The notes under the pieces are model-generated. The model did not search any database and was not told the origin of the DNA. It saw only the letters and a list, made by a program, of their open reading frames with translations. A stretch of 64,000 nt of DNA, taken from assembly GCA_020631975.1 (NCBI GenBank), contig JACKGO010000001.1, forward strand, positions 243,538 through 307,537. The letters are read 5' to 3'. Below are positions 2,828 through 32,378 of this stretch, one piece after another. Made by a program: the position numbers and the translations under genes. How positions within the stretch are numbered: position 1 is the first letter of the stretch; each line of letters begins with the position of its first letter. This DNA comes from Candidatus Nomurabacteria bacterium. GTDB taxonomy: Bacteria > Patescibacteriota > Saccharimonadia > Saccharimonadales > CAIOMD01.

Positions 2828-3000
2828 CGCAGCTTCTCCTTTTTCTGTTTTTCTACTAAAACACCTTTTAAAGTCCTTGTCATAACCGTAGCATATAATA
2901 CGATATTACGCAATTATTATGTACCTATTCTGTGGAAAACTAACATTTTTATATATTTATATACAGCTATTAATAGCGTTGTATATAAAGTAACAAAACA

Positions 3001-4233: not shown

Positions 4234-4248
4234 AGTTACTCCTTATAT

Positions 4249-4280
4249 AAAAAATCCGCTCGGTAGTTGCCGAGCGGATG
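4249..4280 (-). terminator. attenuator terminator in the threonine dehydratase leader
   Basis: Minus-strand ATCCGCTCGG-CAACTA-CCGAGCGGAT followed by TTTTTTAT, ending 8 nt before the RBS. An upstream element CACCGAGCGG can pair with its 5' arm as an antiterminator. Confidence 0.5.
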
Positions 4281-4299
4281 TCTTTTTATTGTTGCACTA

Positions 4300-4371
4300 T
4301 TATTGCATCATTAAACAGACCGCTCGGTGCGGCATAATAATGATGGCAATAATTGCGCGTATAGCTTGCAT
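4300..4371 (-). CDS. Ile-rich leader peptide MQAIRAIIAIIIMPHRAVCLMMQ (23 aa)
   Basis: Six Ile codons (ATT/ATC) within eight codons. The Ile-codon segment is complementary to the segment spanning the leader stop codon (ATTATTGC-ATCATT / AATGATGCAATAAT). Confidence 0.45.
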   Translation of the reverse strand: MQAIRAIIAIIIMPHRAVCLMMQ

Positions 4372-4380
4372 ATACTTACG

Positions 4381-4410
4381 GTTATACGCCTTATAGCAGC
4401 ATGTTGTCAA
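4381..4410 (-). promoter_or_regulatory. sigma70-like promoter for the leader and threonine dehydratase transcript
   Basis: Minus-strand TTGACA, 18-nt spacer, TATAAC; a transcript starting here would begin a few nt before the leader-peptide ATG. Confidence 0.4.
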
Positions 4411-4411
4411 C

Positions 4412-4442
4412 TAAAAAACGCTCCGTACGTAACGGAGCGCTT
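4412..4442 (-). terminator. rplL intrinsic terminator
   Basis: Minus-strand GCGCTCCGT-TACGT-ACGGAGCG followed by TTTTTTAG, about 30 nt after the rplL stop. Confidence 0.6.
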
Positions 4443-4471
4443 AGTACACCGTAAGGTGCTTAGGTAGCTAC

Positions 4472-4882
4472 TTATGCTAATTCGACAGTTCCGCCAGCTT
4501 CTTCTAGAGCTTTTTTAGCGGCTTCTGCATCTTCTTTGTTAGCTTTTTCTAGCACTGGTTTTGGTGCACCATCTACAATAGCTTTTGATTCACCAAGGCC
4601 AAGCCCGGTAATTTCTTTGACTGCTTTGATAACAGCGACTTTCTGGCTACCAGCGTCTTTAAGAACAACATCAAATTCGCTCTTTTCATCAGCTGCTGGT
4701 GCACCACCGTCAGCTGCAGGCGCTGCAGCAACTGCAACGGCTGGTGCAGCTGCACTTACGTTCCAGTATTCTTCTAGAAACGTTACTAATTTGCTAATTT
4801 CTAGGGCACTTAATTTATCTAATTCTTTGACAATGCCTGCGAACTCTTTTGGCACTGTTACTTTGTTATCTGTCTCTGACAT
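4472..4882 (-). CDS. rplL: 50S ribosomal protein L7/L12
   Basis: Ala/Pro-rich hinge and C-terminal [45 protein letters not shown]. Confidence 0.95.
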
Positions 4883-4901
4883 CGTATTATCTCCTTGTTC
4901 C

Positions 4902-5432
4902 TTAATTTATTGATTCTGCTCGGGCTGTTAAGGCATATAAAATACCCCGTTGGCTCCCTTGTAATACACGTATAAACGATGTAAGCGGAGCTGCAATTGT
5001 ACCAACTAATTGACCACGTAATTGATCTTTGCTTGGTAAGTTCGCGAGTGCTTTTACGTCATCTGCGTGTAAAAATAAACCTTCTGGTGTAATTGCTCCT
5101 ACAAACTCTAAACTTGGGTTCGTTTTTGCAAAAACATGGAGGCTCTGGGCGGGCGCTACTTCGTCTTCACTATTAAATGCATACACTAACTGCTCTACGA
5201 GCAAACCAGTATCAACATCCTTTAGTGCGTCAGTTTGCATCAGTGCTTGGCGGACTAATCTATTTTTTACTACCTTAATGACCGTCTGTGACTGTGTTGC
5301 ACTTTTTCTGAGTGCCTGCATATCTTTCACTGACAGGCCTTTGTACTTAGCGACTACTGTTAGTTTAGACGTAGCGAGTAGTTCAGCCACGTCTGCAACC
5401 ACTTGATGCTTTTGTTCTTTACTTAAAGCCAT
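4902..5432 (-). CDS. rplJ: 50S ribosomal protein L10
   Basis: [19 protein letters not shown] start with an AAGGA RBS. The listed ORF starts 34 codons earlier but lacks an RBS. Confidence 0.9.
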
Positions 5433-5642
5433 GTATATCCTTATGTGGGTTATGTAATTATATCGACCAAAATTTATTACTGTGCATATGTGGTAAAAAT
5501 AAAAAATCTTTGGCCACACGTGCACCAAAGACAATAAAACAAATCTTTACCTCGGTGACATTCTTATATCTCTTTATAGAGACGTCACTGTCTTTGGTTA
5601 AAGGTAATTGTAACAGATATCATGCCTCGTGACAAGCAAATA

Positions 5643-5671
5643 TTGTTATTATTACTGTTTTATGATATAAT
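5643..5671 (+). promoter_or_regulatory. promoter of the GGDEF gene (near-leaderless)
   Basis: TTGTTA, 17-nt spacer, TATAAT, with the -10 ending 6 nt before the ATG and no RBS. Confidence 0.4.
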
Positions 5672-5677
5672 ATTATT

Positions 5678-6409
5678 ATGGAATTAGGTAAGGACAGCTG
5701 GATGGATATGGCGAATCGTCTACGTAATGGCGGTCCTAGCGCAGTATTAGCGAGATTCGCTCTTATGCTGGCGGGAAATGCTGCTTTGGCGGATCTTTTA
5801 GAACATGCAGCAAATTCAGATAAAGATAGCTTGACACATATACGTAATCGTGGAGCGCTTGAAGAAGATATAAAAGAGTTACTTTTGTCTCCAGAAAGTG
5901 GAGCGCTCATTGTAATAGACCTCGTTAACTTTGGGCAGGTAAATAACCAACGTGGCCAATCAGGTGGTGATAAGTTATTGCAAATTATAGCCGAGGGGCT
6001 CACGAGAGTCACAAGTAGGCGCCGCAACGATATAATATACACACAACACTCACGTACTGAACCGAGCCAACAAGACGAAGAAGGTTACCGTGTGGGTGGG
6101 GACGAATTTGTTGCACTATTAAAAAATGGTGATTCATTAAAAAATGCCGATATTGTTGCTATCACCCATACGAAACTTCGCCAAATACTAGAAGACCCCG
6201 CAGTCACCGAATTCCTTACTAGTGAAAATGACGATCCAGATAAAGTAATATCCTTATTTGGCATACGAGCAGGCGCGTGCATAATTGATGCGAATAAACA
6301 CGCGTCTTACGCTGATGTACAAAGTGACGCAGACCCTAAATTAGGTACCGTATGTGAATATCAGCTCCGACTCGTAGATGGTACATACGAGCTAGATTGT
6401 ACAATATAG
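5678..6409 (+). CDS. GGDEF-domain diguanylate cyclase (standalone, no sensor domain)
   Basis: DSLTHIRNR (DxLTGLxNR), IVIDLVNFGQVNNQRGQSGGDKLLQ and RVGGDEFVALL with an intact GGDEF motif. Confidence 0.75.
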   Translation: MELGKDSWMDMANRLRNGGPSAVLARFALMLAGNAALADLLEHAANSDKDSLTHIRNRGALEEDIKELLLSPESGALIVIDLVNFGQVNNQRGQSGGDKLLQIIAEGLTRVTSRRRNDIIYTQHSRTEPSQQDEEGYRVGGDEFVALLKNGDSLKNADIVAITHTKLRQILEDPAVTEFLTSENDDPDKVISLFGIRAGACIIDANKHASYADVQSDADPKLGTVCEYQLRLVDGTYELDCTI

Positions 6410-6562
6410 TTGCAAAAATAAACTAGCCAAGGCATACTATACGATATGCAACAAGTAATAACAGCAACGCGCAGTATGTATACACAGATTTTAGGTCTAG
6501 TGCTACTACGGTATGGTGCTGATTCTTTTGTTGCATAAAAACGAGCAAATACAAGAATACGG

Positions 6563-6590
6563 CACCGGGCAAGAAGCCCGGTTTTTTGTT
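6563..6590 (+). terminator. intrinsic terminator
   Basis: CACCGGGC-AAGAA-GCCCGGT followed by TTTTTTGTTTT. Confidence 0.55.
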
Positions 6591-6658
6591 TTACTGGCTC
6601 TGTTTACAGACAACCGTCTGTAGGCAGAGGCTCTCAAACAAATAGGGGTGATCAGTTC

Positions 6659-6877
6659 ATGGCTAAAAAGAAACTCGAAGGTAAGGCAAAGAAACAAATC
6701 GATGCTGCCTTACGACGACGTCACCAACAGCCTGCACTTGCTGCTAAACACTTGCGTGAAGTACTCGGATATATGTCACCAGACATTGTCTGGCAGCAAG
6801 TCGCAAGGACCAACCCAAGTGCAGTCAATGAACTCAAGGCGGTATTACGGACGCACCACATCGGCCGTCCCGCCTGA
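6659..6877 (+). CDS. hypothetical small basic protein (72 aa)
   Basis: ORF with a GGGGTGA RBS-like element 7 nt upstream; no similarity recognised. Confidence 0.3.
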   Translation: MAKKKLEGKAKKQIDAALRRRHQQPALAAKHLREVLGYMSPDIVWQQVARTNPSAVNELKAVLRTHHIGRPA

Positions 6878-7021
6878 GTCACCACATAAAAGTAGTGCAC
6901 CATCAACCGCACGCTTTTGCCATGCAGTACCCAGGGCGAAATGTACAACCATAGTAATCCTATTGTTGTACGGCATCAAACTACCACCAATTGTTTGATG
7001 CCCGCCCTGGGTCTGCAAACC

Positions 7022-9322
7022 CTACTTTTTGTCTAATACTTTCAACTTATATTGTGTATAGCGCTCTGCAGCAAGCCGGGTAAGTTCTGCGTCTTCGTCT
7101 TTATTTACAAAGCGCATTGCTTCTGACACCATCGGGTGTACTTCAGCAATTTTATCGTACATAATTTTTGCCAGTTTTCTATAACCTGGATGCCCTTGTG
7201 GGCTGGTACGCAGTTCTATAAAATGCATGGCTTCTCTGGCGTTCATGGTAGCCTTCCAACGCATTTTATGGCCAAATAACGTAGCATACTGTGATTCGGT
7301 GATTTTTTTGGCTGCTACCAAGTTACTATGTAGTTCTAGGCTTGTGTCAAATGAATCTAGGTAGGTTTCTGTCATGCCTGCCTTTTCTATAAGTTCGGGT
7401 ATATCATAGCCATACCGCGGAGTTAACGGTTGCCAGGCAAGATCACTTACCATCCTATGGCGCTGTAAATCTCTAAATATGCCGTAATCACATACGATAT
7501 CCCAACTATAAGTAATGCGTTCGAGCGCACGGCCAGGTTTGTGCCGGCGGTTAAGTCGCTCGCCAATATAACTACTAAATAGCTTAACCTTATGCTTGTA
7601 TGGTAGATCAGCAATTGCTGCATTGGCTTCTTGCTCGCTCATTGTAGTGTGTTCGTAGACCATGTGCGGTACGACGTCTAGTTCATTCTTAGGATAGTAA
7701 TGGGTGAGGGTTACTGCTGATTGATCTGAGCTGTAAGTTTCTGGTAAAAGTTTTTGAACAAGGGCATGCATTGCCTGTCTAGTGTCTGCCCGGTAGGCTA
7801 CAGTTGCGCCCCCACGCTCTGGCTTATCTGCCCGTTCTAAAAAGGCTGGTATGATTTTGCGGGCTTCTGTAAGCAATGCTTTACCGCATAAACGGGCTTC
7901 TTTTGAACCATCAGCCATCAGTCTCATTATGAGACTTTCTATTGCTTGGCCCGATGCGTATATTCCAACGGTACTTTTCGTAGCAACTGGCAGCATATAA
8001 CGGGCGGCGTCACAGGCTTGGGCACGAATAGCTGATCGCCATGCGCCATCACGCTCTTTTTGGGGGGTAGAGTCTGTTTTGTGCAAATAGTCAGTAATGC
8101 CCCGAACAGCCTTGGAGTAATTGTCAAATAATTGATCCATCGTTTTTATATATTGTTTTTTTGTAGCACTGCTGAGCGTTGTAGGCACGTAGTATTTATA
8201 ACGACCGCTCGCATCTTTTTGGTCATAATAGATATACCGAGTTGATTGCTCTAAATAAGAAGCTAAACGCCCCCATTCAATTTGCTTGGTAAGTAAATTA
8301 GATGCGTTTTCTACTACCATGTGTATACCTACAAGCTGCTGGACAGAATCGTCTCCGTACGCTGTAACGACTCGTTGTATTAAGCCTTCGTCTTTACCTG
8401 CTTTATCTACGAATTCATCTAGCAAGGTTACGCGCATGTCATCACCACGGCGGCTCAGGCGTGCCATCGCGGCAGCTACAGTTACTTGGTCTAGCGTGTC
8501 GTTAAACGCATATACGTTTGATTCGTTGTTAGTGACAATGCTAGATAATTTTTGGCGTCCTGCATCTGTAATTGTTATTGGGTTTGCTGTTGTATCTAAA
8601 TACGCTGCAGTTTGCGCATTAGGTTCATGACTACTTGGTGCACGTAAGATTGGTGGCGGGCTACTCATATGTACACTTGGTTGTGTTTTGGCTGGCTGTT
8701 TATTAAATAGTGCAGCGACATATTCCCATACATATCTAAATACTTTTTCAGACGATTCGTTTGCAAATACAACTGGGTAGCCTCTTTGTTTGGCTTCTAC
8801 TAGATAGCCTGCCCTTACTCTATCTAGAAAGCCAAGGTCTAGGTTGTCAAACCGTTCACCATGTTTGCGACGCTTCATGCGCTTACCTAGTTCATCAACA
8901 GGAGCATCAAGAATTACTGTAAGATCTGGTTCCATGTCTCCGACAGCAAAATTTATAATACTGGTTATCGTGTCATAGTCTGGCACATCACCCCGGCCGT
9001 AATATTGTATCGCTAACGTGGTGAGGTAGTTTCTGTCTACTAAACAAATAACACCTTGTTCGCGGGCTTGTTTAATAACTTCTAGCGACAACGCACGAGC
9101 TGCGTTATAAAGTAGCACCTCTGCTCTGGTATTAAGTGGATAGTTTGGATCTTGTGTAATCTGGCGAATAGCACGGGCTGATAAATGGCTTTGACTATCT
9201 GGTTCTCTGAACAAGCGGACTGCGTAACCATATTTTTGTAGCTGACGGGCGATTAGTTCTATTTGTGTAGTTTTACCAACTCCTTCTGGGCCTTCAAGAA
9301 CAATATAATAGCCTTTACTCAT
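7022..9322 (-). CDS. tmk-thyX: thymidylate kinase fused to tandem flavin-dependent thymidylate synthase (ThyX-ThyX)
   Basis: N-terminal GPEGVGKTTQ, FREPDS and VDRNYL are Tmk motifs. The C-terminal ~550 aa carry two ThyX-like repeats. The first has ARYMLP...SGQAIESLIMRLMAD and a degenerate WGRLASY in place of RHR. The second has QRHRMVSDL...Y, YATLFG and NAREAMHFIELR. Confidence 0.8.
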   Translation of the reverse strand: MSKGYYIVLEGPEGVGKTTQIELIARQLQKYGYAVRLFREPDSQSHLSARAIRQITQDPNYPLNTRAEVLLYNAARALSLEVIKQAREQGVICLVDRNYLTTLAIQYYGRGDVPDYDTITSIINFAVGDMEPDLTVILDAPVDELGKRMKRRKHGERFDNLDLGFLDRVRAGYLVEAKQRGYPVVFANESSEKVFRYVWEYVAALFNKQPAKTQPSVHMSSPPPILRAPSSHEPNAQTAAYLDTTANPITITDAGRQKLSSIVTNNESNVYAFNDTLDQVTVAAAMARLSRRGDDMRVTLLDEFVDKAGKDEGLIQRVVTAYGDDSVQQLVGIHMVVENASNLLTKQIEWGRLASYLEQSTRYIYYDQKDASGRYKYYVPTTLSSATKKQYIKTMDQLFDNYSKAVRGITDYLHKTDSTPQKERDGAWRSAIRAQACDAARYMLPVATKSTVGIYASGQAIESLIMRLMADGSKEARLCGKALLTEARKIIPAFLERADKPERGGATVAYRADTRQAMHALVQKLLPETYSSDQSAVTLTHYYPKNELDVVPHMVYEHTTMSEQEANAAIADLPYKHKVKLFSSYIGERLNRRHKPGRALERITYSWDIVCDYGIFRDLQRHRMVSDLAWQPLTPRYGYDIPELIEKAGMTETYLDSFDTSLELHSNLVAAKKITESQYATLFGHKMRWKATMNAREAMHFIELRTSPQGHPGYRKLAKIMYDKIAEVHPMVSEAMRFVNKDEDAELTRLAAERYTQYKLKVLDKK

Positions 9323-10028
9323 ACGGAACTCCTTCTATTCTTTTTGGGAGTGACCGCGAATCTTGCCATGCTTTTGGTAGCATCTGACTCGGTGCCCAGG
9401 TTTTAATAATTTTATTAATGTCGGTACCCTGCTGATATTTTCCGCTAAAGCCACCGTTACGGGCTTCGCCGTAACTACCATCTACTGGGCCCGTATCATG
9501 AAATATAATTTGCCCTATGCGTTCACCCACAGGTATAAGTACTGTTTCGTGTTTATTAAGGTTGTATATTTCTAGGGTTAACCGATTAATATAACCAGGG
9601 TCTATCCAGCCAGCGTCAAAGCATACCGCAATACCATTACGGCCCCAACTAGAGCGGCTTTTAAGCTCGCACGCCCCAGGCGGTTTAATACCAAAAAACT
9701 CATGACTATGGGCTAAAATACGCTCGCCTGGTTTTAATGCAATCACCGGATGTTCATCTGGAATGTTTTTTACTGGCAAAAAACCATTTAGGGTAGCCCA
9801 TTGAGCATGAGGCATGGCCTTGTAAGGCCCTGCAAAATAGCGTTCAACGTCTTCTCTATCAAATGGGTTATATATGGTTCTGGTGTATTGCAACTCAGTT
9901 TTGTAGTAGTGATAGCCAAGTGTGATATCTAGACTTGCTTCACTGACATGCTTTGGTTCGTACGGCGCACAAATAATGTGCCCTTGTTCTATGGCTGCTC
10001 GTATTTGCGTATTACTAAATACACTCAC
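9315..10028 (-). CDS. dcd: dCTP deaminase (possibly bifunctional dCTP deaminase/dUTPase)
   Basis: GWIDPGYINRLTLEIYN trimeric dUTPase-fold motif with a Dcd-like N-terminus. Overlaps the tmk-thyX start by 8 nt. Confidence 0.8.
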   Translation of the reverse strand: MSVFSNTQIRAAIEQGHIICAPYEPKHVSEASLDITLGYHYYKTELQYTRTIYNPFDREDVERYFAGPYKAMPHAQWATLNGFLPVKNIPDEHPVIALKPGERILAHSHEFFGIKPPGACELKSRSSWGRNGIAVCFDAGWIDPGYINRLTLEIYNLNKHETVLIPVGERIGQIIFHDTGPVDGSYGEARNGGFSGKYQQGTDINKIIKTWAPSQMLPKAWQDSRSLPKRIEGVPYE

Positions 10029-10162
10029 TTCATTACCTCGTCACATTATTTTTTGTTTCCCACCGCTTAGTGATTAGTATAGCAAATAGTTGCTAATATA
10101 CTACACACGCTTCTTTTTAAAAAGCGTGTGTATGCACTAATTTTTTATAAAGTGACGGCTAT

Positions 10163-11215
10163 TTAGATTTCTGCAGTATCTATTTTAACGCTTGGGCCCA
10201 TAGATGTCGTAATATATATACTCATCACGTAATTACCCTTTACCGTAGCTGGCTTTGCTGCTTTAATGCTAGCAAATACGGTTTTAGCGTTTGATACAAC
10301 TTTATCAACACCAAAGCTAACTTTACCTATACCAAGATGCACAATCCCGTTGCTGTCTACGCGATATTCTACTTTACCACCTTTGGCTTCTTTGACTGCT
10401 TTGGTAACATCTGCTGCTACAGTGCCACTTTTAGGGCTCGGCATTAAACCTTTTGGTCCTAAATTGCGCGCATATTTACCAAGTTTTGGCATTACGGCCG
10501 GTGTAGCAATTAATACATCAAAGTTAAATAATCCCTTATCTAATTGCTGCAAGAATTCTTCTGCACCAGCAATATCTGCACCTGCTGCTATGGCTTTTGC
10601 TACGTCGTCTGCTTCTGCAAAAACAGCTACTGTTACTTTTTTGCCTGTACCTTCTGGTAGAACAATACTCGCCCTAATATTCTGATCTGCATGTCGTGGG
10701 TCAACCCCAAGTCGTACATGCAACTCTACGGTAGCATCAAACGCAGTAGTGCTTGTAGCTAGCGCTACCTTGGCAGCATCTTGCAAGCTGTAGAGTTTTG
10801 TTTTATCGATAGATTCAATTGCTTTACGGTACTTTTTACCTTTACGCTCAACAAGACTTCTCGTAACTACTTTCTTTTTTACAGGTGTAGTTTCTTCTTC
10901 AGACGCATGGGCTTTTCTTTCTTCTTTCGCTGCTTTTTCTTCTTGCTCTTTTAAGCCTTTGGCGCTTCGCTTACCAGCCTTAGCTGTTTTAACATCTTCT
11001 TTTGCGAGTTCTGCCTCTGCTTCTACAATAACTTCTGCAATTTTTTCGGTTTCTACCAATTCTTCAATTTTCTTGGTAGATTCTTTTGCTGCCTTTGCCT
11101 CTGCAATGGCTTGTTCTATTTGCACAATAGTATTTTTTGCAGTAACACTTAGTTTAAGCTTTTTGGCTTCTGCAAGTAATGCTTCTTTTTTAGATGGTTT
11201 TTTGGCTTCTGCCAT
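10163..11215 (-). CDS. rplA: 50S ribosomal protein L1 with a 110-aa Lys/Ala/Glu-rich N-terminal extension
   Basis: The L1 core begins at ERKGKKYRKAIESIDKTKLYSLQDA. No ATG, GTG or TTG lies near the core start, so the extension is in frame from the distal ATG. Confidence 0.85.
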   Translation of the reverse strand: MAEAKKPSKKEALLAEAKKLKLSVTAKNTIVQIEQAIAEAKAAKESTKKIEELVETEKIAEVIVEAEAELAKEDVKTAKAGKRSAKGLKEQEEKAAKEERKAHASEEETTPVKKKVVTRSLVERKGKKYRKAIESIDKTKLYSLQDAAKVALATSTTAFDATVELHVRLGVDPRHADQNIRASIVLPEGTGKKVTVAVFAEADDVAKAIAAGADIAGAEEFLQQLDKGLFNFDVLIATPAVMPKLGKYARNLGPKGLMPSPKSGTVAADVTKAVKEAKGGKVEYRVDSNGIVHLGIGKVSFGVDKVVSNAKTVFASIKAAKPATVKGNYVMSIYITTSMGPSVKIDTAEI

Positions 11216-17619: not shown

Positions 17620-17696
17620 TAGGGGAGTAGCTCAGTTGGTAGAGCACTGGTCTCCAAAACCAGTGGCCGCAGGTTCGAGCCCTGTCTCCCCTGCCA
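17620..17696 (+). tRNA. tRNA-Trp (CCA)
   Basis: Cloverleaf with acceptor AGGGGAG/CTCCCCT, anticodon loop CTCCAAA, T-loop TTCGAGC and an encoded CCA. An extended -10 TGcTATAAT lies 27 nt upstream. Confidence 0.9.
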
Positions 17697-19448: not shown

Positions 19449-20780
19449 TTAATTTTTGTAGCTTTTAGCACCTACTAAGATTGATGCAGATGATACGACT
19501 GCTAGGACAATAAGTACAGCTATGTACACTGCTATGCTAGAGCCTGTGTAGGCAAGCTTTGCACCTGTAGCAACGGTTGGTACAGAAGCGACAGTTACTG
19601 CTGGGCTTTCTGGTGTTGGATTAGGTGTAGCTTGCGCAAGCGGAGCCCACTGCTCAATACCAACTCGGTCGGTAACTTTAGCAAAAAGTTTTGTAGTTAA
19701 GTTAAATGTTGCAGTATATAGTGGAGTGACATTATTCTTTTTAAAGGATTTACTTTCGTTCTGTTGACCATAAACCGTACCAATTAGTGAGCTGTTATCT
19801 GGTGAAAAATAGGCTGGAATAAACATCTCATCTTTTAGTTCGCTCAGTGGAGTAGCACTTCCATCAACTGTACTAATAAGGTAGAATTTGCAGTGGTTAT
19901 ACGAGCTAGATTCTCGATTTGCAAGCATTCCGTAAGCTGATAAACAGTCGAGCGAAGATGTTACGTCAGCAACAAGTACTGACTTGTTGTCTGGGGAAAC
20001 ATCTAGAAAGTATTCAGACATATTTTTAGTTGTAGTCAATTGCTGACTAGTCGTTTCGCCAGGTAATATGTACCAAATATCAGTATTGAACCATGTAGTT
20101 TTACTGTAATAGATTGTGCCGTTATCTGCATAACCTGCGTTTATATATACATCGCTAGATGGTCCAACAATTGTTGTTGGTGTACCAGATTCATTGTCTA
20201 TAGCAACTATAGCTGCTTTAGGATTATCTATTTGGTAGCTGTACTGCGTAGCTAACACTGTTTCGCCGTCTGGTGAATAAGATAAGTTATTGACCCAGCT
20301 TTTTGATGGGAACCATTTCGTTCCATTAACTAAACTATCTAAATTAGTTAGTAAGTCTTGTCCCTCAACTACGTTGCCGTCTCCATCGGTTGTAACCTTA
20401 TTGACTACAGCGCAAGTTTTTTCATATTTTGCACAATCGGTTGTAGATTCCACTCCGTAAGCGATATCGTAATTACCTTCGGCTGTTGGTGGTGAAATAC
20501 CAGCTGCAGTGATTGTATCATCTTCTGTTGCAGCTACTTGCTCGTTGGTACCATCTGGCCCAGTTGTAATGACCTGACTGACGGTTTCTTCTTGAAGTAT
20601 AACTCCTCTATCCTCGGGATTAACGCTGTTTTCATTTTCTGTTGGTACTTGATTGTCTATATAGACAATCGGTCCATTTTCTCCATCTATGGCAGCTGCT
20701 GCAGATGGCGAATACGCCAAAAACCCCACGGCACAAGCTGCTGTTGCAAAGAATGGAATAATAAACATCCCTTTTCTCAT
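19449..20780 (-). CDS. sortase-anchored surface protein with PD40/TolB-like beta-propeller repeats
   Basis: N-terminal signal peptide (MRKGMFIIPFFATAACAVG), repeated SPDG/SPDN blades, and a C-terminal LAYTG followed by a hydrophobic helix and a KSYKN tail. Confidence 0.65.
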   Translation of the reverse strand: MRKGMFIIPFFATAACAVGFLAYSPSAAAAIDGENGPIVYIDNQVPTENENSVNPEDRGVILQEETVSQVITTGPDGTNEQVAATEDDTITAAGISPPTAEGNYDIAYGVESTTDCAKYEKTCAVVNKVTTDGDGNVVEGQDLLTNLDSLVNGTKWFPSKSWVNNLSYSPDGETVLATQYSYQIDNPKAAIVAIDNESGTPTTIVGPSSDVYINAGYADNGTIYYSKTTWFNTDIWYILPGETTSQQLTTTKNMSEYFLDVSPDNKSVLVADVTSSLDCLSAYGMLANRESSSYNHCKFYLISTVDGSATPLSELKDEMFIPAYFSPDNSSLIGTVYGQQNESKSFKKNNVTPLYTATFNLTTKLFAKVTDRVGIEQWAPLAQATPNPTPESPAVTVASVPTVATGAKLAYTGSSIAVYIAVLIVLAVVSSASILVGAKSYKN

Positions 20781-20943
20781 CACGAGCTCCTTGTTTAATA
20801 ATTTTAGTCTATGCCTATAGATAGTACTTGTCAAATATTTTGTTTTGTTGTATGGCTATAGTTCTTATGCTTCTTGTAACCTGTTAATACTAGCCAGATT
20901 TGACTGCTATTATTTATGACAGATTGTTATACAATACAGCTAT

Positions 20944-21537
20944 ATGAAATCTCCTAAACGAGTGACCAATAAACGTGCACTAGCAGGTATTGCATTGGGC
21001 TTAGTGTGCACTGTTTTCGCACTATACATAAGCATTTTACTCCTTTCACCACGGTTACCGTCTATTCCTTATGTATCTGCTTCACCAATTGACCTAAACA
21101 CGAAAGATGACGAAAACGATAATAGAAATCGGATACAAATAGAAAAAATTGGTGTAGAAGTACCGTTTTACACAGGTAACGAAGACGTCTTAGAACTAGG
21201 CGCATGGCACAGACAACCAGAAAACGGCAACCCTGCACAGGGTGGAAATTTTGTATTGGCTGCTCATAGGTTTGAAATGGGTAATACACCTGGCCAAACA
21301 AGAACAAAATCGCCATTTTATAGAATTGACACTTTAGAATTAGGTAACAACGTAAGAATTTTTTACGAAGGCCAGTGGTATGATTACACAGTGAGTAAAA
21401 AATACGAGGTACCAGATAACGCTCTTTATATTGAAAGCACAAGCGTAGAACCAAAACTAACGCTCTATAGCTGTTCAATGAGAGGACCGGCCGCCGGCCG
21501 TTATGTTATAGAAGCCTCACCCAATACAACACGCTAA
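20944..21537 (+). CDS. sortase (class E-like, LAxTG-specific)
   Basis: N-terminal TM anchor, catalytic His in VLAAHR, and the TLYSCS (TLxTC) cysteine motif. Confidence 0.8.
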   Translation: MKSPKRVTNKRALAGIALGLVCTVFALYISILLLSPRLPSIPYVSASPIDLNTKDDENDNRNRIQIEKIGVEVPFYTGNEDVLELGAWHRQPENGNPAQGGNFVLAAHRFEMGNTPGQTRTKSPFYRIDTLELGNNVRIFYEGQWYDYTVSKKYEVPDNALYIESTSVEPKLTLYSCSMRGPAAGRYVIEASPNTTR

Positions 21538-21609: not shown

Positions 21610-22575
21610 ATGCTATACGGAAACGAAATACGTCGTCACTATTATTTGCCTAAAACGGTTATTGTGGCTCCACGCAGATCTGCCAGGCCAACTTCTTTCA
21701 CAGAAAGCATTACTGTGGCGAACCAAGCTGCGTGTGTACTGTGTAATAGCCACGAAGAGTGTATGTACAGTGTGCAGTCTAGCGATGGGTGGGTAATAAA
21801 ATCGGTACGTAACCCATATGGTGCCCTGACAGAGCATCAAAAGCACGCTTATGGATACCAAGAAGTAATTATTGAATCCCCAGCCCACATCACTAATTTT
21901 AGCGACCATTCAGTATACACCATAAAAATGCTGTTAGACACCTATGCGCATCGTTCTGATGCTCTTAAAAAACGACCCCACATTCGCTATGTATCGGTAT
22001 TTAAAAACAATGGCCCGCATGCTGGTGCAACACTGCAACATAGCCATAGCCAAGTGTTTGGCTTTCCATTTGTACCAGAAAAAGTGCTTACAGAAGTCGA
22101 AGCACTTGCCCATTACAAGCAAAAGCATGGCAACTGTGCAATATGCGATGTTATTCGAACCGAGCTTACGGACAATGTGCGGGTTGCTTACGAGCTAGAC
22201 CATGCTATTGCGCTATGTCCGTTTGCTTCAGAATACCCATATGAGCTGCTGATTATCCCTAAAAAACATTCTAGCAGTTTGTCAAAACTACACGATGATA
22301 CTAAATATGACATGGCTACGCTGCTAAAAATGTCTATACATATGCTAGACATGCAAAAACTCGATTATAACTATTACATTAATGACATGCATCACGCTGG
22401 CACTCATACCTACATACGTATAACGCCACGCATTGGCGCACCAAAAGTGTTTGGAGGATTAGAAATGGCGACAGATATTACCGTGAATTCTGTACCCCCA
22501 GAGCGTGCGGCTAAGGAGTACCGCCAGCACGTTGGTTCCCTGTTGCCTGCTCAACACTATGCCATTGCAAAATAA
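21610..22575 (+). CDS. GalT-like hexose-1-phosphate nucleotidyltransferase / NDP-sugar phosphorylase (HIT superfamily)
   Basis: N-terminal CVLCNSHEEC zinc knuckle and HSHSQ (HxHxQ) active-site motif; 321 aa. Confidence 0.6.
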   Translation: MLYGNEIRRHYYLPKTVIVAPRRSARPTSFTESITVANQAACVLCNSHEECMYSVQSSDGWVIKSVRNPYGALTEHQKHAYGYQEVIIESPAHITNFSDHSVYTIKMLLDTYAHRSDALKKRPHIRYVSVFKNNGPHAGATLQHSHSQVFGFPFVPEKVLTEVEALAHYKQKHGNCAICDVIRTELTDNVRVAYELDHAIALCPFASEYPYELLIIPKKHSSSLSKLHDDTKYDMATLLKMSIHMLDMQKLDYNYYINDMHHAGTHTYIRITPRIGAPKVFGGLEMATDITVNSVPPERAAKEYRQHVGSLLPAQHYAIAK

Positions 22576-23230
22576 TATCGTTTAGAAGCTGCAACGTCTG
22601 TTGCTTATCTGGCAGCGTGTTATCTTCGTAGTAGTGATTAATATCAAAAAGGTTTTCTTTGGCAGACAAGCATATAAGATCATCTGCCAGCACATGCATT
22701 TTATCTACCGCATCTACAGATGCTACAGGTGTAGCCATAACGAGTTTTTTATAGTGAATTGCCTTTAAAAAGTCATACACCATATCAAAACTGGTACCAC
22801 TAAGGGCTCCATCTGTGACGGCTATGACAACCCTGTTTCTAAAATAACTTGGTGATATTTCACCACCTTGCCCCAACACCACATGCATATTACGTATAGA
22901 TTCACGCTTTGCTTGCTCTATATGGTTACGGTATTCAGACTCAAATTCTTCTATTTCACCAGTAGAAAACGAGTTGTTATGTATAAATCCACCTTGTTCG
23001 TTAATAATACCGACCATTGTCCGGCCATCTGGTAAATAAATATCTTTTGTTAAAAGCATGGCAATGAGACTATGGAGGTTTCTGGCGAGTTCTGCTCCAA
23101 CCAATACTGCCCCTGGTGAAAGTGCTAAAACTATAGTGTCTTCATACCGATATTTTTGGGCATACTGTGCAATAATGGCCCCTGCCTGAGCGCGCGATTG
23201 AAAGTAATTATAGCTTGGGTTTTGCTGCAT
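22511..23230 (-). CDS. phosphoribosyltransferase-domain protein
   Basis: PRPP-binding-like VVIAVTDGALSGTS; convergent 65-nt overlap with the GalT-like gene. Confidence 0.5.
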   Translation of the reverse strand: MQQNPSYNYFQSRAQAGAIIAQYAQKYRYEDTIVLALSPGAVLVGAELARNLHSLIAMLLTKDIYLPDGRTMVGIINEQGGFIHNNSFSTGEIEEFESEYRNHIEQAKRESIRNMHVVLGQGGEISPSYFRNRVVIAVTDGALSGTSFDMVYDFLKAIHYKKLVMATPVASVDAVDKMHVLADDLICLSAKENLFDINHYYEDNTLPDKQQTLQLLNDIILQWHSVEQATGNQRAGGTP

Positions 23231-23319
23231 ATTAAGTGTTTAAATTATAGCAGTAATATTTTAAGTTTATATAATTACAATTACGCAACAATTTATAGAC
23301 TTTTTCACATCATTTATGG

Positions 23320-23348
23320 TTGTTTTTACGCTGTAAGAGTACTATACT
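23320..23348 (+). promoter_or_regulatory. promoter of the GT4-GH57-GH15 operon
   Basis: TTGTTT, 17-nt spacer, TATACT, 40 nt before the GT4 start. Confidence 0.35.
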
Positions 23349-23387
23349 AAAAGCATAAACATAACAAAAGGTTAAAATACCAAAAAT

Positions 23388-24599
23388 ATGAAGGTACTTA
23401 TGCTTGGGTGGGAACTGCCACCGCATAATAGCGGAGGGCTTGGTGTCGCGTGTTATCATATGTGCAAAGCACTGTCTCATAAAGGGGTAGATATTGAATT
23501 TATCGTGCCGTACACTGCCCCGCACGATGATATACATTTTATGAAGGTAACCCCGGCTACGCCTTTTAATGTCAAGGAAATCCAAAAAGGTGGCATGGCC
23601 TATGACAGTTTTAGCTATATTTATAACGATAAATCTATAGAGCATATTTCTATCCATGAGCAAACAGAACGTTACGTCAAATCTGTCGAGGGTATTACTA
23701 CATTAGGTGAATTTGACATTATTCATGCGCATGATTGGCTTACTTTTCGGGCTGCGCTCCGTGCTAAAGAAATAAGTGGCAAGCCGCTAATCACTCATGT
23801 ACACGCGACCGAGTTTGACCGCGCTGGTGGTAAATCAGGCAATCCGCTTGTACATGAAATAGAATACATGGGGCTTATGTTGGCAGATAAAATCATTGCC
23901 GTCAGCCAACATACAAAAAATGTAATTACCAAAGAATACGACATTCCACAAGACAAAATAGATGTTGTACATAACAGTATAGACACTGCTATATACCAAG
24001 ACCTAGACCCCCATAACGCCTACCGTTATTTAGAAAAAATGAAGTCCCATGGCTACAGGGTAGTGGCGAATGTTGGCAGACTTACCGTACAGAAAGGTTT
24101 ATATAACCTACTGCTCGCAGCCAAAGATGTCGTTTCGCGCTCACCTAAGACCATTTTTTTGATTGTTGGGTCTGGTGAACAGTATCAAGAATTATTACAG
24201 CTTTCGGCCGATTTAGGCATTGCTAAAAACGTCGTGTTTACTGATTTTCAAAGAGGTAAAAATTTACGTGACGCTTTTGCAATTGCCGATTTATTTGTAA
24301 TGCCAAGTGTTTCTGAGCCATTTGGACTCACACCACTAGAAGCAATAGGCTATGGGACGCCCGCACTTGTTAGCAAGCAAAGTGGTGTTGCCGAGGTTAT
24401 TACCAACTGCTTAAAAGTAGATTTTTGGGATGTCCAAGAAATGGCCAACCAAATACACGCCGTTGTATCACACGATAGTTTACGTGACGAACTTCACACC
24501 CAAAGTTTTGCAGAATTCATTAAGCTATCGTGGGACGCTACAGCACATAAGCTTGTAGGCGCATATACGCAGCACGTTCAACTTGTGGGGGCTAAGTAA
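23388..24599 (+). CDS. GT4 retaining glycosyltransferase (alpha-glucan / glycogen-synthase-like)
   Basis: MKVLMLGWELPPHNSGGLG N-terminus and C-terminal EPFGLTPLEAIGYG (EX7E). Confidence 0.75.
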   Translation: MKVLMLGWELPPHNSGGLGVACYHMCKALSHKGVDIEFIVPYTAPHDDIHFMKVTPATPFNVKEIQKGGMAYDSFSYIYNDKSIEHISIHEQTERYVKSVEGITTLGEFDIIHAHDWLTFRAALRAKEISGKPLITHVHATEFDRAGGKSGNPLVHEIEYMGLMLADKIIAVSQHTKNVITKEYDIPQDKIDVVHNSIDTAIYQDLDPHNAYRYLEKMKSHGYRVVANVGRLTVQKGLYNLLLAAKDVVSRSPKTIFLIVGSGEQYQELLQLSADLGIAKNVVFTDFQRGKNLRDAFAIADLFVMPSVSEPFGLTPLEAIGYGTPALVSKQSGVAEVITNCLKVDFWDVQEMANQIHAVVSHDSLRDELHTQSFAEFIKLSWDATAHKLVGAYTQHVQLVGAK

Positions 24600-25813
24600 T
24601 GAAGCAAGCTATTAGCCTTTACTTACACGTTCATCAGCCCTACCGTATTAGACATTACACTATATTTGATGCCGGAAGCGACCATCAATACTTTAATGAC
24701 GCAAGCCCGCACGCACTAACCAACAACCGGTTTATTGTTGAAAAAGTGGCCGAAAAATCATACCGACCAATGAACGCGGTGCTCAAAGAATTATTAGACA
24801 CAATAGAAGACTTTAAATTTAGTTTGTCTATACCTGGTATGCTCATTGATCAACTGGCCGAGTGGGCTCCAGACGTACTATATTCTTTCCAGGAACTCGT
24901 AAAAAGTGGCCGAGTAGAAATTGTGGCAGAAACCTACCACCACAGTTTGGCCTTCTTTTATTCGCGTGCAGAATTTGAAGCCCAAGTACTTATGCACCGC
25001 CAAAAAGTCCAAGAAGTGTTTGGTGTAACCCCTACGGCATTCCGAAACACCGAACTTAGTTACAATAACGATTTAGCTTATTGGGCAGATAAAGCGGGTT
25101 ATAAAGCCATAATTACAGAAGGTTGGGACCCTATTTTAGGATGGCGTAGCCCTAATTTTGTGTACCGTCCAGCTTACACAGAAAATATTAAATTACTACT
25201 TAAGAATTATAAGCTAAGTGACGATATTGCGTTTCGGTTTGGTAACCAAGAATGGGAAGAATGGCCCCTCAGTGCCGAAAAGTATGTATCGTGGCTTGGT
25301 GCAGCGATGGATAATGCCCAAGTATTTAATTTGTTTATGGATTATGAAACGTTTGGCGAGCACCAATGGGCGAGCACAGGTATATTTGATTTTATGAAAG
25401 CCATGCCACATATATGGAAAAATAGCCGTGATGATCGCACGTTTATGACTATTAGCGAATCTGTCTATAGCTTTGAAGCCAACGATTATGTTGATATACC
25501 GCAAACAATTACATGGGCCGACACTGAACGAGATTTAACTGCATGGCTTGGTAATAGTATGCAGCACGAAGCAATACATGCCATATATCAGCTCGAAGAT
25601 AAAGTACTACGTTGTGGTGACGCCGATATCGTGGCAGACTGGCGTAAACTACAAACCAGTGATCATTTTTACTATATGTGTACCAAATGGTTTAAAGACG
25701 GTGATGTACACGCATATTTTAGCCCTTATACCAGCCCGTACGAAGCGTTTACGAACTTTATGAATGCGTGGCACGACTTGCAGTTCCGCCTTGCAGAGAA
25801 AGGGTTTGTTTAA
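24599..25813 (+). CDS. glycoside hydrolase family 57 (alpha-amylase / glucanotransferase-like)
   Basis: N-terminal LYLHVHQPYR GH57 signature; start overlaps the GT4 stop. Confidence 0.8.
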   Translation: MKQAISLYLHVHQPYRIRHYTIFDAGSDHQYFNDASPHALTNNRFIVEKVAEKSYRPMNAVLKELLDTIEDFKFSLSIPGMLIDQLAEWAPDVLYSFQELVKSGRVEIVAETYHHSLAFFYSRAEFEAQVLMHRQKVQEVFGVTPTAFRNTELSYNNDLAYWADKAGYKAIITEGWDPILGWRSPNFVYRPAYTENIKLLLKNYKLSDDIAFRFGNQEWEEWPLSAEKYVSWLGAAMDNAQVFNLFMDYETFGEHQWASTGIFDFMKAMPHIWKNSRDDRTFMTISESVYSFEANDYVDIPQTITWADTERDLTAWLGNSMQHEAIHAIYQLEDKVLRCGDADIVADWRKLQTSDHFYYMCTKWFKDGDVHAYFSPYTSPYEAFTNFMNAWHDLQFRLAEKGFV

Positions 25814-25830
25814 GCGTGGCTAGACCAGTC

Positions 25831-27750
25831 ATGCTGAGTAATGGCCAGCTAATGGTTGGCTTGAATGAAGCCGGCTTAGTCCATGATTTTTATTACCCAT
25901 ATGTGGGGTTAGATAATCTTACAACCGCCAGAAGTGTGCACCATAAAATTGGTGTATGGGTAGATGGTACGTTTTCTTGGGTAGATGATGATTCCTGGCA
26001 GGTAGATATTCAGCTAGAAACAGATGCGCTTATTGGTAGAGTAGAACTATCACATGAAAGTCTTGGCATAAAAATCAGCACAAAAGATTTTGTAGACACG
26101 CAAACAAACGCCTTTATACGACGCATATCAGTAACCAATGAAAGTAATACTCGCAGAGATATTCGTCTGTTTATGCATCAGGTTTTTGAAATATCTAAAT
26201 CTGGCCGTGCCGACACAGCTTTTTATGAACCTGACGGTAATTACATTTTAGATTATAAAGGCCGTTGTGCCTTGCTTATATGTGGGCAAACAAAAGACGG
26301 TCACTCTCTAGACCAATTTGCTGTTGGTAATTACGGCATAGAAGGCAAAGCTGGTACTTTTATTGATGCAGCTGATGGTGAATTGTCTGGCAACGCCGTA
26401 GAACATGGTGGCGTAGATTCTGTCATACGGTTTTCTATACCGCTAGATCCACATACAACGGCTGAAGTTGACTATTGGATTATTGCGAGTAGCTCACAGT
26501 ATGAGTCACAAGCTATCCACGCAGATTTTTTGCGACACGGTATAGATAAGCGTGAACAGATTGCCCGAAATACATGGGCAAAGTGGTTAAAACAGGGTGA
26601 CAGCGCACTAGAAACAATTGCGCCTGAGTATCAAGATCATGTAAAAAAATCATTGCTTGTCATTAAAGCACATATAGACAAACGAGGTGGTATTTTAGCG
26701 AGTGGTGATAGTAGCATATTTAATTATGGCCGAGATTACTACTGTTATGTATGGCCCCGCGACGGGGCATATGCTATATGGCCACTTATAAGAATGGGTT
26801 ATTACAAAGAAGCGATTAAATTCTTTGAATTCTGTCGTGATACGATGCATAAAGACGGCTATTTGCTCCATAAGTATCAGCCAGATAGAGCAATTGGGAG
26901 TACCTGGCACCCACTGGTGCACAATAGTCGTTCGGAGCTGGCAATACAAGAAGACGAAACTGCAATAATCCTTATAATGTTGGGTGAATATTATGATTAT
27001 AGTAAGGATGCCGAATTTACCGAATCGCTGTATGCCACATTAATCCAGCCGGCTGCAATGTTTATTAGTAAATTCATAGAAGAAGACACAAACTTGCCGC
27101 ATGCGAGCTACGATTTATGGGAAGAGAAATTTTTAACAACAACCTATACCACTGCTACTGTTATACGCGCATTACGGCGAGCAAGTAGCTTTGCTGACCA
27201 GTTTGGATACCCAGACGACGCCGTTCAGTGGATGCAGGTTGCAGATAGTATAGAATCATCACTCCCCTTGCTGTACGACCCTGATAGGCAAGCGTATCGT
27301 AAAGGACTTCTGCGCCTGCCAGATGGTAATCTACAGTTTGATAACACGTTGGATATGTCCACGTTATACGGACTTACCATGTTTACAAAAGTAAAATTAA
27401 ACGATCCAACAGTTGTTCACACGGTAGAAGCTATAGAAAGTAACCTCGTTAACAAAACTATCGGTGGAGTCGTGCGATACGAAAACGATAACTACATGAA
27501 AACATCAGAAGATGCGCAACCGAATCCATGGTTTGTGTGCACATTATGGCTTGCGCAGTATTATGTACAGAGGCAACAGCCAGATAAAGCCAAAGAACTC
27601 ATAGATTGGTCACTGTCACATAGCCTAGATAGTGGCATACTAAGTGAACAAGTACACCCAGAAACCGGCTATGCGGTGGGCGTTGCTCCGTTAGTATGGA
27701 GCCACACTGAACTTATTAATACGATTCTTGATATTAGCGGAACACAGTAA
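25831..27750 (+). CDS. glycoside hydrolase family 15 (glucoamylase / glucodextranase / trehalase-like)
   Basis: LSNGQLMVGLNEAG N-domain and YVWPRDGAYAI (WxRD) in an (alpha/alpha)6 catalytic domain. Start placed at the ATG after the GH57 stop; the listed ORF starts 21 codons earlier and overlaps GH57. Confidence 0.75.
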   Translation: MLSNGQLMVGLNEAGLVHDFYYPYVGLDNLTTARSVHHKIGVWVDGTFSWVDDDSWQVDIQLETDALIGRVELSHESLGIKISTKDFVDTQTNAFIRRISVTNESNTRRDIRLFMHQVFEISKSGRADTAFYEPDGNYILDYKGRCALLICGQTKDGHSLDQFAVGNYGIEGKAGTFIDAADGELSGNAVEHGGVDSVIRFSIPLDPHTTAEVDYWIIASSSQYESQAIHADFLRHGIDKREQIARNTWAKWLKQGDSALETIAPEYQDHVKKSLLVIKAHIDKRGGILASGDSSIFNYGRDYYCYVWPRDGAYAIWPLIRMGYYKEAIKFFEFCRDTMHKDGYLLHKYQPDRAIGSTWHPLVHNSRSELAIQEDETAIILIMLGEYYDYSKDAEFTESLYATLIQPAAMFISKFIEEDTNLPHASYDLWEEKFLTTTYTTATVIRALRRASSFADQFGYPDDAVQWMQVADSIESSLPLLYDPDRQAYRKGLLRLPDGNLQFDNTLDMSTLYGLTMFTKVKLNDPTVVHTVEAIESNLVNKTIGGVVRYENDNYMKTSEDAQPNPWFVCTLWLAQYYVQRQQPDKAKELIDWSLSHSLDSGILSEQVHPETGYAVGVAPLVWSHTELINTILDISGTQ

Positions 27751-28274: not shown

Positions 28275-28349
<75 letters not shown>

Positions 28350-28505
28350 ATCATACGCTGTGCTGCCCATCATTTCTTGCAGCAACCCTAGGTTGTGCCT
28401 ATTATCTAATAGATAGTCAGCATCAATATTGCCAAGGGGATTATGCTCTAAGCCATGTGTTGACTGAGTTTCTGCAAAACGATGTGGATCATAATTACTC
28501 ATATA

Positions 28506-28591
28506 TGTGGTGCAGGGTGTAGGATTCGAACCTACGAAGGCATAAGCCAACAGATTTACAGTCTGTCGTGTTTGACCGCTTCACTAACCCT
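28506..28591 (-). tRNA. tRNA-Tyr (GTA)
   Basis: Anticodon loop CTGTAAA; long variable arm; T-loop TTCGAAT; CCA encoded. Confidence 0.85.
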
Positions 28592-28728
28592 GCATAAAGA
28601 GTATGTAGCTTGAGGTCAAGTACTACATACTCCAATTGTATTGTTAAAACACTTCCCTGACTACCCTCACGGCAAGTCAAAGGGTTTAGGCGCTCTCGCA
28701 CTGCGCCCAAGAATAACCAATGTTATTC

Positions 28729-28804
28729 TGGAGCCGACAGAGGGATTCGAACCCACGACCCGCTGTTTACAAAACAGCCGCTCTGGCCACTGAGCTATGT
28801 CGGC
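28729..28804 (-). tRNA. tRNA-Thr (TGT)
   Basis: Anticodon loop TTTGTAA; T-loop TTCGAAT; CCA encoded. Confidence 0.85.
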
Positions 28805-32291: not shown

Positions 32292-32378
32292 TGGTGCGGA
32301 TGAGAGGACTTGAACCTCCACGATATTGCTACCACTAGTCTCTGAAACTAGCGCGTCTACCAGTTCCGCCACATCCGC
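32292..32378 (-). tRNA. tRNA-Leu (CAG)
   Basis: Anticodon loop TTCAGAG; long variable arm; T-loop TTCAAGT; CCA encoded. Confidence 0.85.

Follow-up and report, generated by a model that had tools for sequence, protein, structure and literature searches.

Does the sortase encoded in a saccharibacterial genome fragment attach the protein encoded divergently beside it to the cell wall, and what would such a protein do on the cell surface? The Saccharibacteria grow fixed to cells of other bacteria, and a function has been assigned to few of the proteins on their surface. The stretch analyzed here, referred to as the window, comprises 64,000 nucleotides (nt) of contig JACKGO010000001.1 (assembly GCA_020631975.1), deposited as Candidatus Nomurabacteria bacterium and placed in the Saccharimonadia. 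It carries a sortase gene (positions 20944–21537, plus strand) next to a gene of opposite orientation (19449–20780, minus strand), whose product is called the cargo protein in the following. An initial annotation, made from the sequence alone, had described the pair as a class-E-like sortase and a LAxTG-anchored propeller with a plausible role in host attachment or nutrient capture. According to our analysis, the sortase most likely fixes the neighboring six-bladed propeller to the cell wall via the textbook sortase pathway. The anchoring mechanism is ordinary; the family to which the cargo protein belongs has no name and is restricted to this phylum.

Conserved pairing of the sortase and cargo genes

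Both open reading frames (ORFs) of the initial annotation are present, and the two genes diverge over a spacer of 163 nt (20781–20943). The 64-kb window contains a single sortase and a single propeller, and a six-frame scan for sorting signals gave one credible candidate. A cargo gene adjoins a sortase gene in 12 distinct lineages (the window with L001–L003; L004/L005; L006/L007; L008/L016; L009/L010/L014; L011; L015; L017; L019; L020/L021; L022; L028). The genes are divergently orientated in 11 of them and arranged in tandem in L017, which has a more divergent sortase. The other neighbors are unrelated from lineage to lineage among these 12. Since the pairing is maintained in 12 lineages with differing flanks, the sortase and its cargo are therefore functionally linked, and the divergent pair noticed initially proved to be a conserved feature rather than a chance neighborhood. 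The cargo proteins of the ten lineages compared are 41% to 59% identical to that of the window, the divergently paired sortases 52% to 70%, and the tandem sortase of L017 39%; in the nine divergent pairs, the cargo is thus somewhat more diverged than the enzyme.

The cargo family comprises about 35 clusters at 50% identity, and every member with a source name stems from Saccharibacteria or Patescibacteria. A pattern-based search for the locus (alignment A1) yielded four loci in 185,579 GTDB species genomes and five metagenome loci.

Sortase fold, catalytic residues, and class

The sortase (197 amino acids (aa), NCBI entry MCA9344996.1) was assigned to the Pfam family PF04203 (MEROPS C60) with 63.2 bits, well above the cut-off of 26.6, over residues 64–193. 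The catalytic residues His108 (LAAHRF, 21265–21267), Cys177 (TLYSC, 21472–21474), and Arg186 (GRYVIEA, 21499–21501, all on the plus strand) are invariant in an alignment of 59 homologues. In the sequence alignment with PDB entry 4d70, they coincide with the histidine of AGHR, the cysteine of TIVTC, and the arginine of DRYIVKA. The AlphaFold2 model (predicted local distance difference test score (pLDDT) 85.9) contains an N-terminal helix formed by residues 10–37 (20971–21054, plus strand), which is hydrophobic in sequence and corresponds to the membrane anchor proposed earlier, followed by a beta domain. The 50 best Foldseek matches of this model are sortases without exception. The model and the family assignment identify the window enzyme as a true sortase with a predicted sortase beta-barrel fold and an N-terminal anchor, as had been recognized from its histidine and TLYSC cysteine motifs.

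The assignment to class E, in contrast, did not hold. The NCBIfam class E model NF033747 reached 30.3 bits (cut-off 160) and aligned solely to residues 58–158, which is no better than the scores of the class D models NF033746 (36.0 bits, cut-off 165) and NF058671 (36.5 bits, cut-off 140) or the class C model (26 bits, cut-off 160). Eight other sortases of Saccharibacteria behaved similarly: their scores for the three classes (25–53 bits) stayed far under the cut-offs, and those on the class E model alone amounted to 37–49 bits. When the sortase family profile was compared to PDB sequences, the first ranks went to two enzymes of class D, 4d70 (51.5 bits) and 2ln7 (45.9 bits), followed by class A enzymes; the class E enzyme SrtE1 (5cuw) reached 30.6 bits. 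The first-ranked Foldseek match was again 4d70 (template modeling (TM) score 0.68, root mean square deviation 3.0, 25% identity), and none of the entries 5cuw, 5utt, and 5go5, which we take to be the class E structures, occurred among the 50 best matches.

Class E enzymes are distinguished by a conserved tyrosine in the beta3/beta4 loop and by a beta6/beta7 loop that is enlarged by an insertion of about 21 residues (Kattke et al., PMC5148588). The tyrosine of the GHY motif of the class E enzyme 5utt aligns to Arg90/Gln91 of the window sortase, albeit in a weak alignment (E 0.28), and Arg90 is invariant among the 59 homologues. The 21-residue insertion is absent: in the model, the loop between the strands 144–156 and 171–177 comprises about 16 residues (PDNALYIESTSVEPK). 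The window sortase is not a class E enzyme, and the curated models place it in none of the defined classes. In some NCBI records, related enzymes of Saccharibacteria are named class E sortase, a label that finds no support from the models tested here.

In sequence and fold, the window sortase is closest to the class D enzymes of Clostridium perfringens (SrtD, 4d70) and Bacillus anthracis (SrtD, 2ln7), with which it shares the aligned triad, the small size, and the single N-terminal anchor. Class D enzymes sit beside their few substrates, and their signal LPNTA resembles the LPNTG of window orthologues. Nevertheless, the window enzyme scores only about 36 bits against the class D cut-offs of 140–165, the substrates of its family end in TG instead of TA and have no fixed proline at position 2, and its organism is an episymbiont of the candidate phyla radiation (CPR), not a spore-forming member of the Firmicutes. 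The likeness to the actinobacterial class E enzymes (SrtE1 of Streptomyces coelicolor, 5cuw; SrtA of Actinomyces oris, 5utt) lies on the substrate side, as the window cargo carries LAYTG. In vitro, SrtE1 accepts LAETG as well as LPETG for cleavage (PMC5148588), a tolerance resembling that which the window family appears to need. In contrast to class E substrates, 16 of 33 cargo representatives carry LPxTG, and 10 have neither proline nor alanine at position 2.

Predicted propeller fold of the cargo protein

The cargo gene encodes a precursor of 443 aa. Its first 29 residues (20694–20780, minus strand) read as a Sec-type signal peptide, with MRKG at the N-terminus, a hydrophobic core, and three alanines at positions 27–29. 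A27, A29, G33, and G36 hardly vary among 33 homologues, and cleavage by signal peptidase I is predicted after Ala29. A lipoprotein signal was considered and rejected, because the cysteine of the hydrophobic core is missing in several orthologues.

The signal peptide is followed by a predicted beta-propeller domain of the TolB/PD40 type with about six blades (residues ~33–380; 19641–20684, minus strand). The AlphaFold2 model, calculated with 18 homologues, has a predicted TM score of 0.72; pLDDT averaged in ten-residue blocks is mostly 86–97 over residues 80–280. It contains about 25 strands, which can be read as six blades of four strands each and one closing strand; the blade number is thus derived from the strand count. 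In the Foldseek search, TolB structures occupied ranks 1–14 (E down to 4e-11, TM score 0.46–0.51 in the best superpositions, 10% to 15% identity), and propellers of S9 peptidases came next. PD40-like motifs are found in SYSPDGETVLAT, LDVSPDNKSVLVAD, and YFSPDNSSLIGT, and blade motifs of the SPDG/SPDN type occur as well.

Sequence searches with the window protein were less informative. It matched no Pfam family at E ≤ 1, PD40 (PF07676) included, and a weak match to the Dpp5 N-terminal model was the only one in NCBIfam. PD40 weakly matched 8 of the 33 family members (best E 7.2e-5). The cargo family profile found nothing significant among the PDB sequences. An exhaustive search with this profile in 1.84 billion representatives retrieved about 35 full-length relatives and, beyond these, only blade-level matches to large repeat proteins (E 1e-12 to 1e-5); 9 of 10 of these multi-repeat proteins that were tested passed the PD40 cut-off. 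As the window cargo lacks a Pfam match, the propeller rests on structure prediction and the profile search. Both point to a TolB/PD40-type propeller by fold and remote homology, as initially proposed for this secreted protein, and place it in a divergent, unnamed family.

TolB is a six-bladed propeller, and the cell of Saccharibacteria is monoderm. Besides the fold and the SPDG/SPDN motifs shared with TolB and the S9 peptidases, there are clear differences: the cargo protein is only 12% to 15% identical to TolB, it has neither the TolB N-terminal domain nor a peptidase domain, and it is predicted to be anchored to the wall via a sortase signal, whereas TolB is free in the Gram-negative periplasm.

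The motifs LNAGYADNG, DVSPD, and FSPD form a conserved core in the cargo family. Two pairs of cysteines are also conserved (C115/C122 and C279/C297, window numbering), wherefore the protein may need disulfide formation. In L009 (6498–7726), which is nearest to the window among the LPNTG lineages (56% identity), genes encoding a thioredoxin and a DsbD-like membrane protein follow the cargo gene. The homologues P0016 and P0170 have an insertion of about 190 residues between propeller blades (columns ~225–400 of alignment A1). For P0016, a precomputed match to the Pfam family PF13313 exists, and the insertion looks like a domain placed in a propeller loop.

Between the propeller and the C-terminal signal lies a linker rich in Pro, Thr, Ala, and Val (residues 381–408, PLAQATPNPTPESPAVTVASVPTVATGAK; 19557–19640, minus strand) with low pLDDT and no secondary structure. 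Its sequence is variable, yet it is found in all homologues. The linker presumably spans the wall.

Sorting signal

The cargo protein ends in the pentapeptide LAYTG (residues 409–413; 19542–19556, minus strand), followed by a hydrophobic retention segment and a short basic tail (residues 414–443, SSIAVYIAVLIVLAVVSSASILVGA-KSYKN; 19452–19541, minus strand). The segment consists of 25 uncharged residues, and AlphaFold2 predicted a helix over residues 416–442, in agreement with the hydrophobic helix and KSYKN tail described before. The three-part signal occurs at the same place in all 33 cargo representatives, and its L, T, and G are invariant; the signal is thus conserved in orthologues, as the initial annotation required. 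From the sequence, cleavage by the sortase is predicted between T412 and G413.

Position 2 of the signal is far more variable than the initial emphasis on LAxTG implied. Proline is the most common residue (16 of 33 representatives), followed by alanine (7), glutamine (4), valine and glutamate (2 each), and threonine and serine (1 each); the family signal is LxxTG, not LAxTG. The nearest relatives of the window cargo (69% to 72% identity) carry LPNTG. LAYTG is no sequence error, as each of the 13 members of the 90% cluster whose sequence extends to the C-terminus carries it, across several alleles. Two more clusters, both of low identity to the window cargo, also have LAYTG, giving three such clusters in all. 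The spread at position 2 suggests relaxed specificity or co-evolution of enzyme and signal. No column of the sortase alignment stood out as covarying with alanine or proline at this position, a comparison with no statistical power, since it included three LA-type pairs, one of them very divergent. The Pfam LPXTG anchor model PF00746 matched 15 of 33 cargo homologues (best E 1.3e-5).

Probable anchoring and possible roles of the propeller

In the pathway that we consider the most probable, the 443-aa precursor would be exported by Sec, and the signal peptide would be removed after Ala29. The hydrophobic segment and the Lys-containing tail at the C-terminus would hold the precursor in the membrane, where Cys177 of the membrane-anchored sortase would cut between Thr412 and Gly413 of LAYTG. 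The resulting thioacyl intermediate would be resolved by an amino group of a peptidoglycan precursor. The expected product is a TolB/PD40-type propeller of about six blades (residues ~30–412), linked to the wall by a covalent bond and raised on a Pro/Thr-rich stalk some 28 residues long. The genes, their pairing, the catalytic triad, and the L..TG signal are shown here and the folds are predicted, whereas the chemical steps are adopted from established sortase knowledge; we infer Sec cleavage, the processing of LAYTG by this particular sortase, the wall acceptor, and any ligand. Most likely, the propeller serves as a ligand-binding module.

A component of the host cell surface is a plausible ligand, representing one candidate role among several. 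A precedent exists in the phylum: the minor pilin PilX2 of Nanosynbacter lyticus TM7x bears a propeller, and its deletion lowers host binding (PMC11623550). Like the cargo protein, PilX2 exposes a beta-propeller on the surface of a saccharibacterial cell. Its propeller, however, is seven-bladed and of the RCC1 type, is carried on a type IV pilin, and is not anchored by a sortase; PilX2 is compared to the cargo as a precedent and not as a homologue. As TM7x uses a different propeller for host binding, host attachment is plausible for the cargo protein by analogy.

Several observations weigh against anchoring by the neighboring sortase or against host attachment. Three distant cargo members, P0194 (LEDTG), P0181 (LQSTG), and P0176 (LAYTG), have no sortase in the DNA examined. 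Adjacency is consequently not obligatory, and the pairing is a property of one cargo sub-clade. The window cargo matched neither PF00746 (Pfam) nor TIGR01167 (NCBIfam) at E ≤ 1. Class A, B, and D sortases, which lack the class E tyrosine, do not process alanine at position 2 (PMC5148588); since the window enzyme lacks this tyrosine, too, efficient cleavage of LAYTG is not assured. Further evidence comes from transposon sequencing of Southlakia epibionticum (Wang et al. 2023, PMC10633639). This organism encodes a 199-aa "class E sortase" (SEML1_0711) with the Pfam sortase domain at residues 64–191 and the same domain layout as the window sortase. Its gene is classed NE/GA/GA, codes whose meanings were not confirmed from the table header, and the insertion reads rose from 2664 to 10626 in co-culture (PMC10633639). 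If SEML1_0711 is orthologous to the window sortase, its dispensability would argue against an indispensable role in host attachment. Together with the conserved blade motifs, these data point away from a fast-evolving, indispensable adhesin.

Among the other explanations, the strongest is that the enzyme is a housekeeping sortase for all LxxTG proteins of the genome, with the propeller as one client, perhaps the most abundant. In size, the sortase family (260 matches at E ≤ 0.001) greatly exceeds the cargo family (about 35 representatives), and a related sortase in L013, another Saccharibacterium, has no propeller neighbor but a 76-aa protein ending in LASTG at a distance of 1.7 kb. The distant cargo members without an adjacent sortase are also in line with such a general enzyme. 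On the other hand, the pairing persists in 12 lineages despite the complete turnover of the flanks, which suggests selection for co-regulation with the cargo. We rate the chance of a housekeeping enzyme at slightly below even. It is compatible with wall anchoring of the propeller by the neighboring sortase and differs from it solely in the exclusivity of the pairing.

Instead of a host adhesin, the propeller may be a factor for envelope maintenance, which binds the cell's own peptidoglycan or another envelope partner, or captures peptides in the manner of S9-peptidase propellers, and thereby serves wall integrity or nutrient uptake. The order of the fold matches (TolB, then S9-peptidase propellers) and the weak Dpp5 N-terminal match fit this role, as do the core motifs LNAGYADNG, DVSPD, and FSPD, which are well conserved, unlike those of a hypervariable adhesin in an arms race. 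The small Southlakia sortase, read as dispensable in co-culture (with the reservation on the class codes given above), fits as well. However, the identity to TolB amounts to just 12% to 15%, and neither a TolB N-terminal domain nor Pal or Tol partners are apparent. The patchy occurrence of the cargo family (about 35 clusters at 50% identity and 4 of 185,579 GTDB species genomes in the pattern-based search) argues against a core envelope function and better fits a niche-specific factor. On balance, a maintenance role appears rather unlikely.

More far-reaching is the idea that the small saccharibacterial sortases constitute a separate class, equally far from each of the classes C, D, and E, with relaxed or co-evolving specificity for position 2 of the signal (P/A/Q/V/E/T/S), and that they are dedicated in this clade to a lineage-specific, wall-anchored propeller recognizing the bacterial host of the episymbiont. 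Taken as a whole, this chain of assumptions is speculative, and we give it a small chance.

Somewhat less credit still is due to the assumption that the propeller is tethered to the membrane and escapes the sortase, LAYTG being a decayed signal, so that the protein is held by its C-terminal helix or released. The alanine at position 2 of the window cargo, where its nearest relatives have proline, could be taken as a sign of such decay, in particular as the tyrosine proposed for alanine recognition in class E (PMC5148588) is missing from the enzyme and as the signal was missed by PF00746 and TIGR01167. Yet the window cargo has an intact L, T, and G as well as an intact hydrophobic segment and basic tail, no allele of the species cluster deviates from LAYTG, and alanine recurs in 7 of 33 representatives, with LAYTG in three clusters of low mutual identity. 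The neighboring sortase gene is intact and its triad conserved.

A pilus-type sortase that polymerizes propeller subunits into a fiber in the manner of class C enzymes is very improbable: although a sortase beside a single substrate gene is also a layout of pilus loci and class C structures occur among the fold matches, the cargo is predicted to be a closed propeller and not an Ig-like or CnaB pilin, the class C model scored 26 bits against a cut-off of 160, the sortase model (helix 10–37, a low-confidence stretch, and the catalytic domain) has no evident separate helical lid, as seen without a lid-specific test, and no YPKN-type pilin motif was noticed on reading the cargo sequence, which was not searched for it systematically.

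Gene starts, intergenic region, and genomic neighborhood

The cargo gene (19449–20780, minus strand; stop codon 19449–19451) has an identical 443-aa product in public gene calls. The NCBI entry "hypothetical protein KC871_00045" is 100% identical to it and lies in the same locus on JAGQMV010000001.1 (GCA_020428475.1). The mechanically predicted ORF is longer (19449–20834, minus strand, 461 aa) and starts with TTG. This start was rejected: public gene calls and all homologues start at the ATG corresponding to position 20780 (MRKG/MKKG), an AAGGAG sequence (20787–20792, minus strand) is located 6 nt upstream of this ATG, and the TTG at 20834 forms the beginning of a −35-like hexamer, TTGACA. For these reasons, we regard ATG 20780 as the true start.

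Besides the AAGGAG, the divergent intergenic region contains two promoter-like sites, TTGACA-17-TAGACT (20834 to 20806, minus strand) and TTAATA-18-TATTAT (20884–20913, plus strand). The number of promoter-like sites did not exceed the expectation from shuffled sequences, and the same was true for the terminator scan; given this count, the sites are consistent with divergent transcription and are not read as more. The two genes contrast in their ribosome-binding sites. The cargo gene has the strong AAGGAG, whereas no recognizable Shine–Dalgarno sequence precedes the sortase gene (20915–20946), and a TACAAT is located 9–14 nt upstream of its ATG (20930–20935). On account of these two features, the sortase mRNA could be leaderless or nearly so.

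Beside the sortase gene lies a gene for a GalT/HIT-like nucleotidyl transferase (21610–22575). It is convergent to a weakly phosphoribosyltransferase-like ORF (22511–23230, below the Pfam cut-off), with which it overlaps by 65 nt. Beyond these ORFs follows a glucan cluster (21610–27750 including the two ORFs) encoding GT5/GT4 glycogen-synthase-like proteins, a GH57 protein and a polysaccharide deacetylase, and a GH15 glucoamylase-like protein; its Pfam labels were taken from the identical public locus. Five tRNA genes are present in the window (17621–17696, 28275–28804, and 32292–32378), specific for Trp, Thr-GGT, Tyr, Thr-TGT, and Leu-CAG. Apart from the tRNAs, the Rfam scan of the window revealed no family at the gathering score.

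The flanks of the related loci hold further genes. In L028, a heliorhodopsin gene (PF18761; 2762–3556, minus strand) is located about 500 nt downstream of the cargo gene. In L006 (2473–4328), the genes for subunits I and II of a cytochrome bd oxidase directly precede the sortase gene; this oxidase is unexpected, since the phylum is usually described as fermentative. The 76-aa protein of L013 (4115–4345, minus strand) carries a hydrophobic segment and the tail RRSKQSN behind its LASTG and weakly matches the NCBIfam model NF058583, "LAXTG motif-containing small protein" (21.6 bits, cut-off 65); tatA and tatC lie between its gene and the sortase gene (6001–6600), about 1.7 kb away. A second sortase of S. 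epibionticum, SEML1_0327 (448 aa), is classed GD/ES/ES, codes whose meanings were likewise not confirmed (PMC10633639). In the region SEML1_0326–0329, this sortase, read as essential, is encoded with an essential PEGA-domain protein on one side and, on the other, a PKD-domain protein that has LPXTG-anchored proteins as structural neighbors, which makes it a second sortase–cargo neighborhood in the phylum (PMC10633639).

Implications

The frequent occurrence of sortases in CPR genomes was known before (PMC6744442). Literature searches on sortases and LPXTG proteins in Saccharibacteria and Patescibacteria yielded general mentions only and nothing on the cargo family described here. As the mechanism is textbook knowledge and sortases of the CPR are known, the gain lies in annotation and in a lead, not in a new principle. 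For an organism group that lives on the surface of other bacteria, the locus supplies a concrete surface protein whose anchoring is probably covalent, along with the enzyme that likely performs it, and the cargo family is testable in genetically tractable strains. Most worth following up are the variability of the signal at position 2 and the sortase clade that lacks a class assignment: the natural series of signals (LPxTG, LAxTG, LQxTG, LExTG, and others) could show how specificity for this position evolves outside the six described sortase classes.

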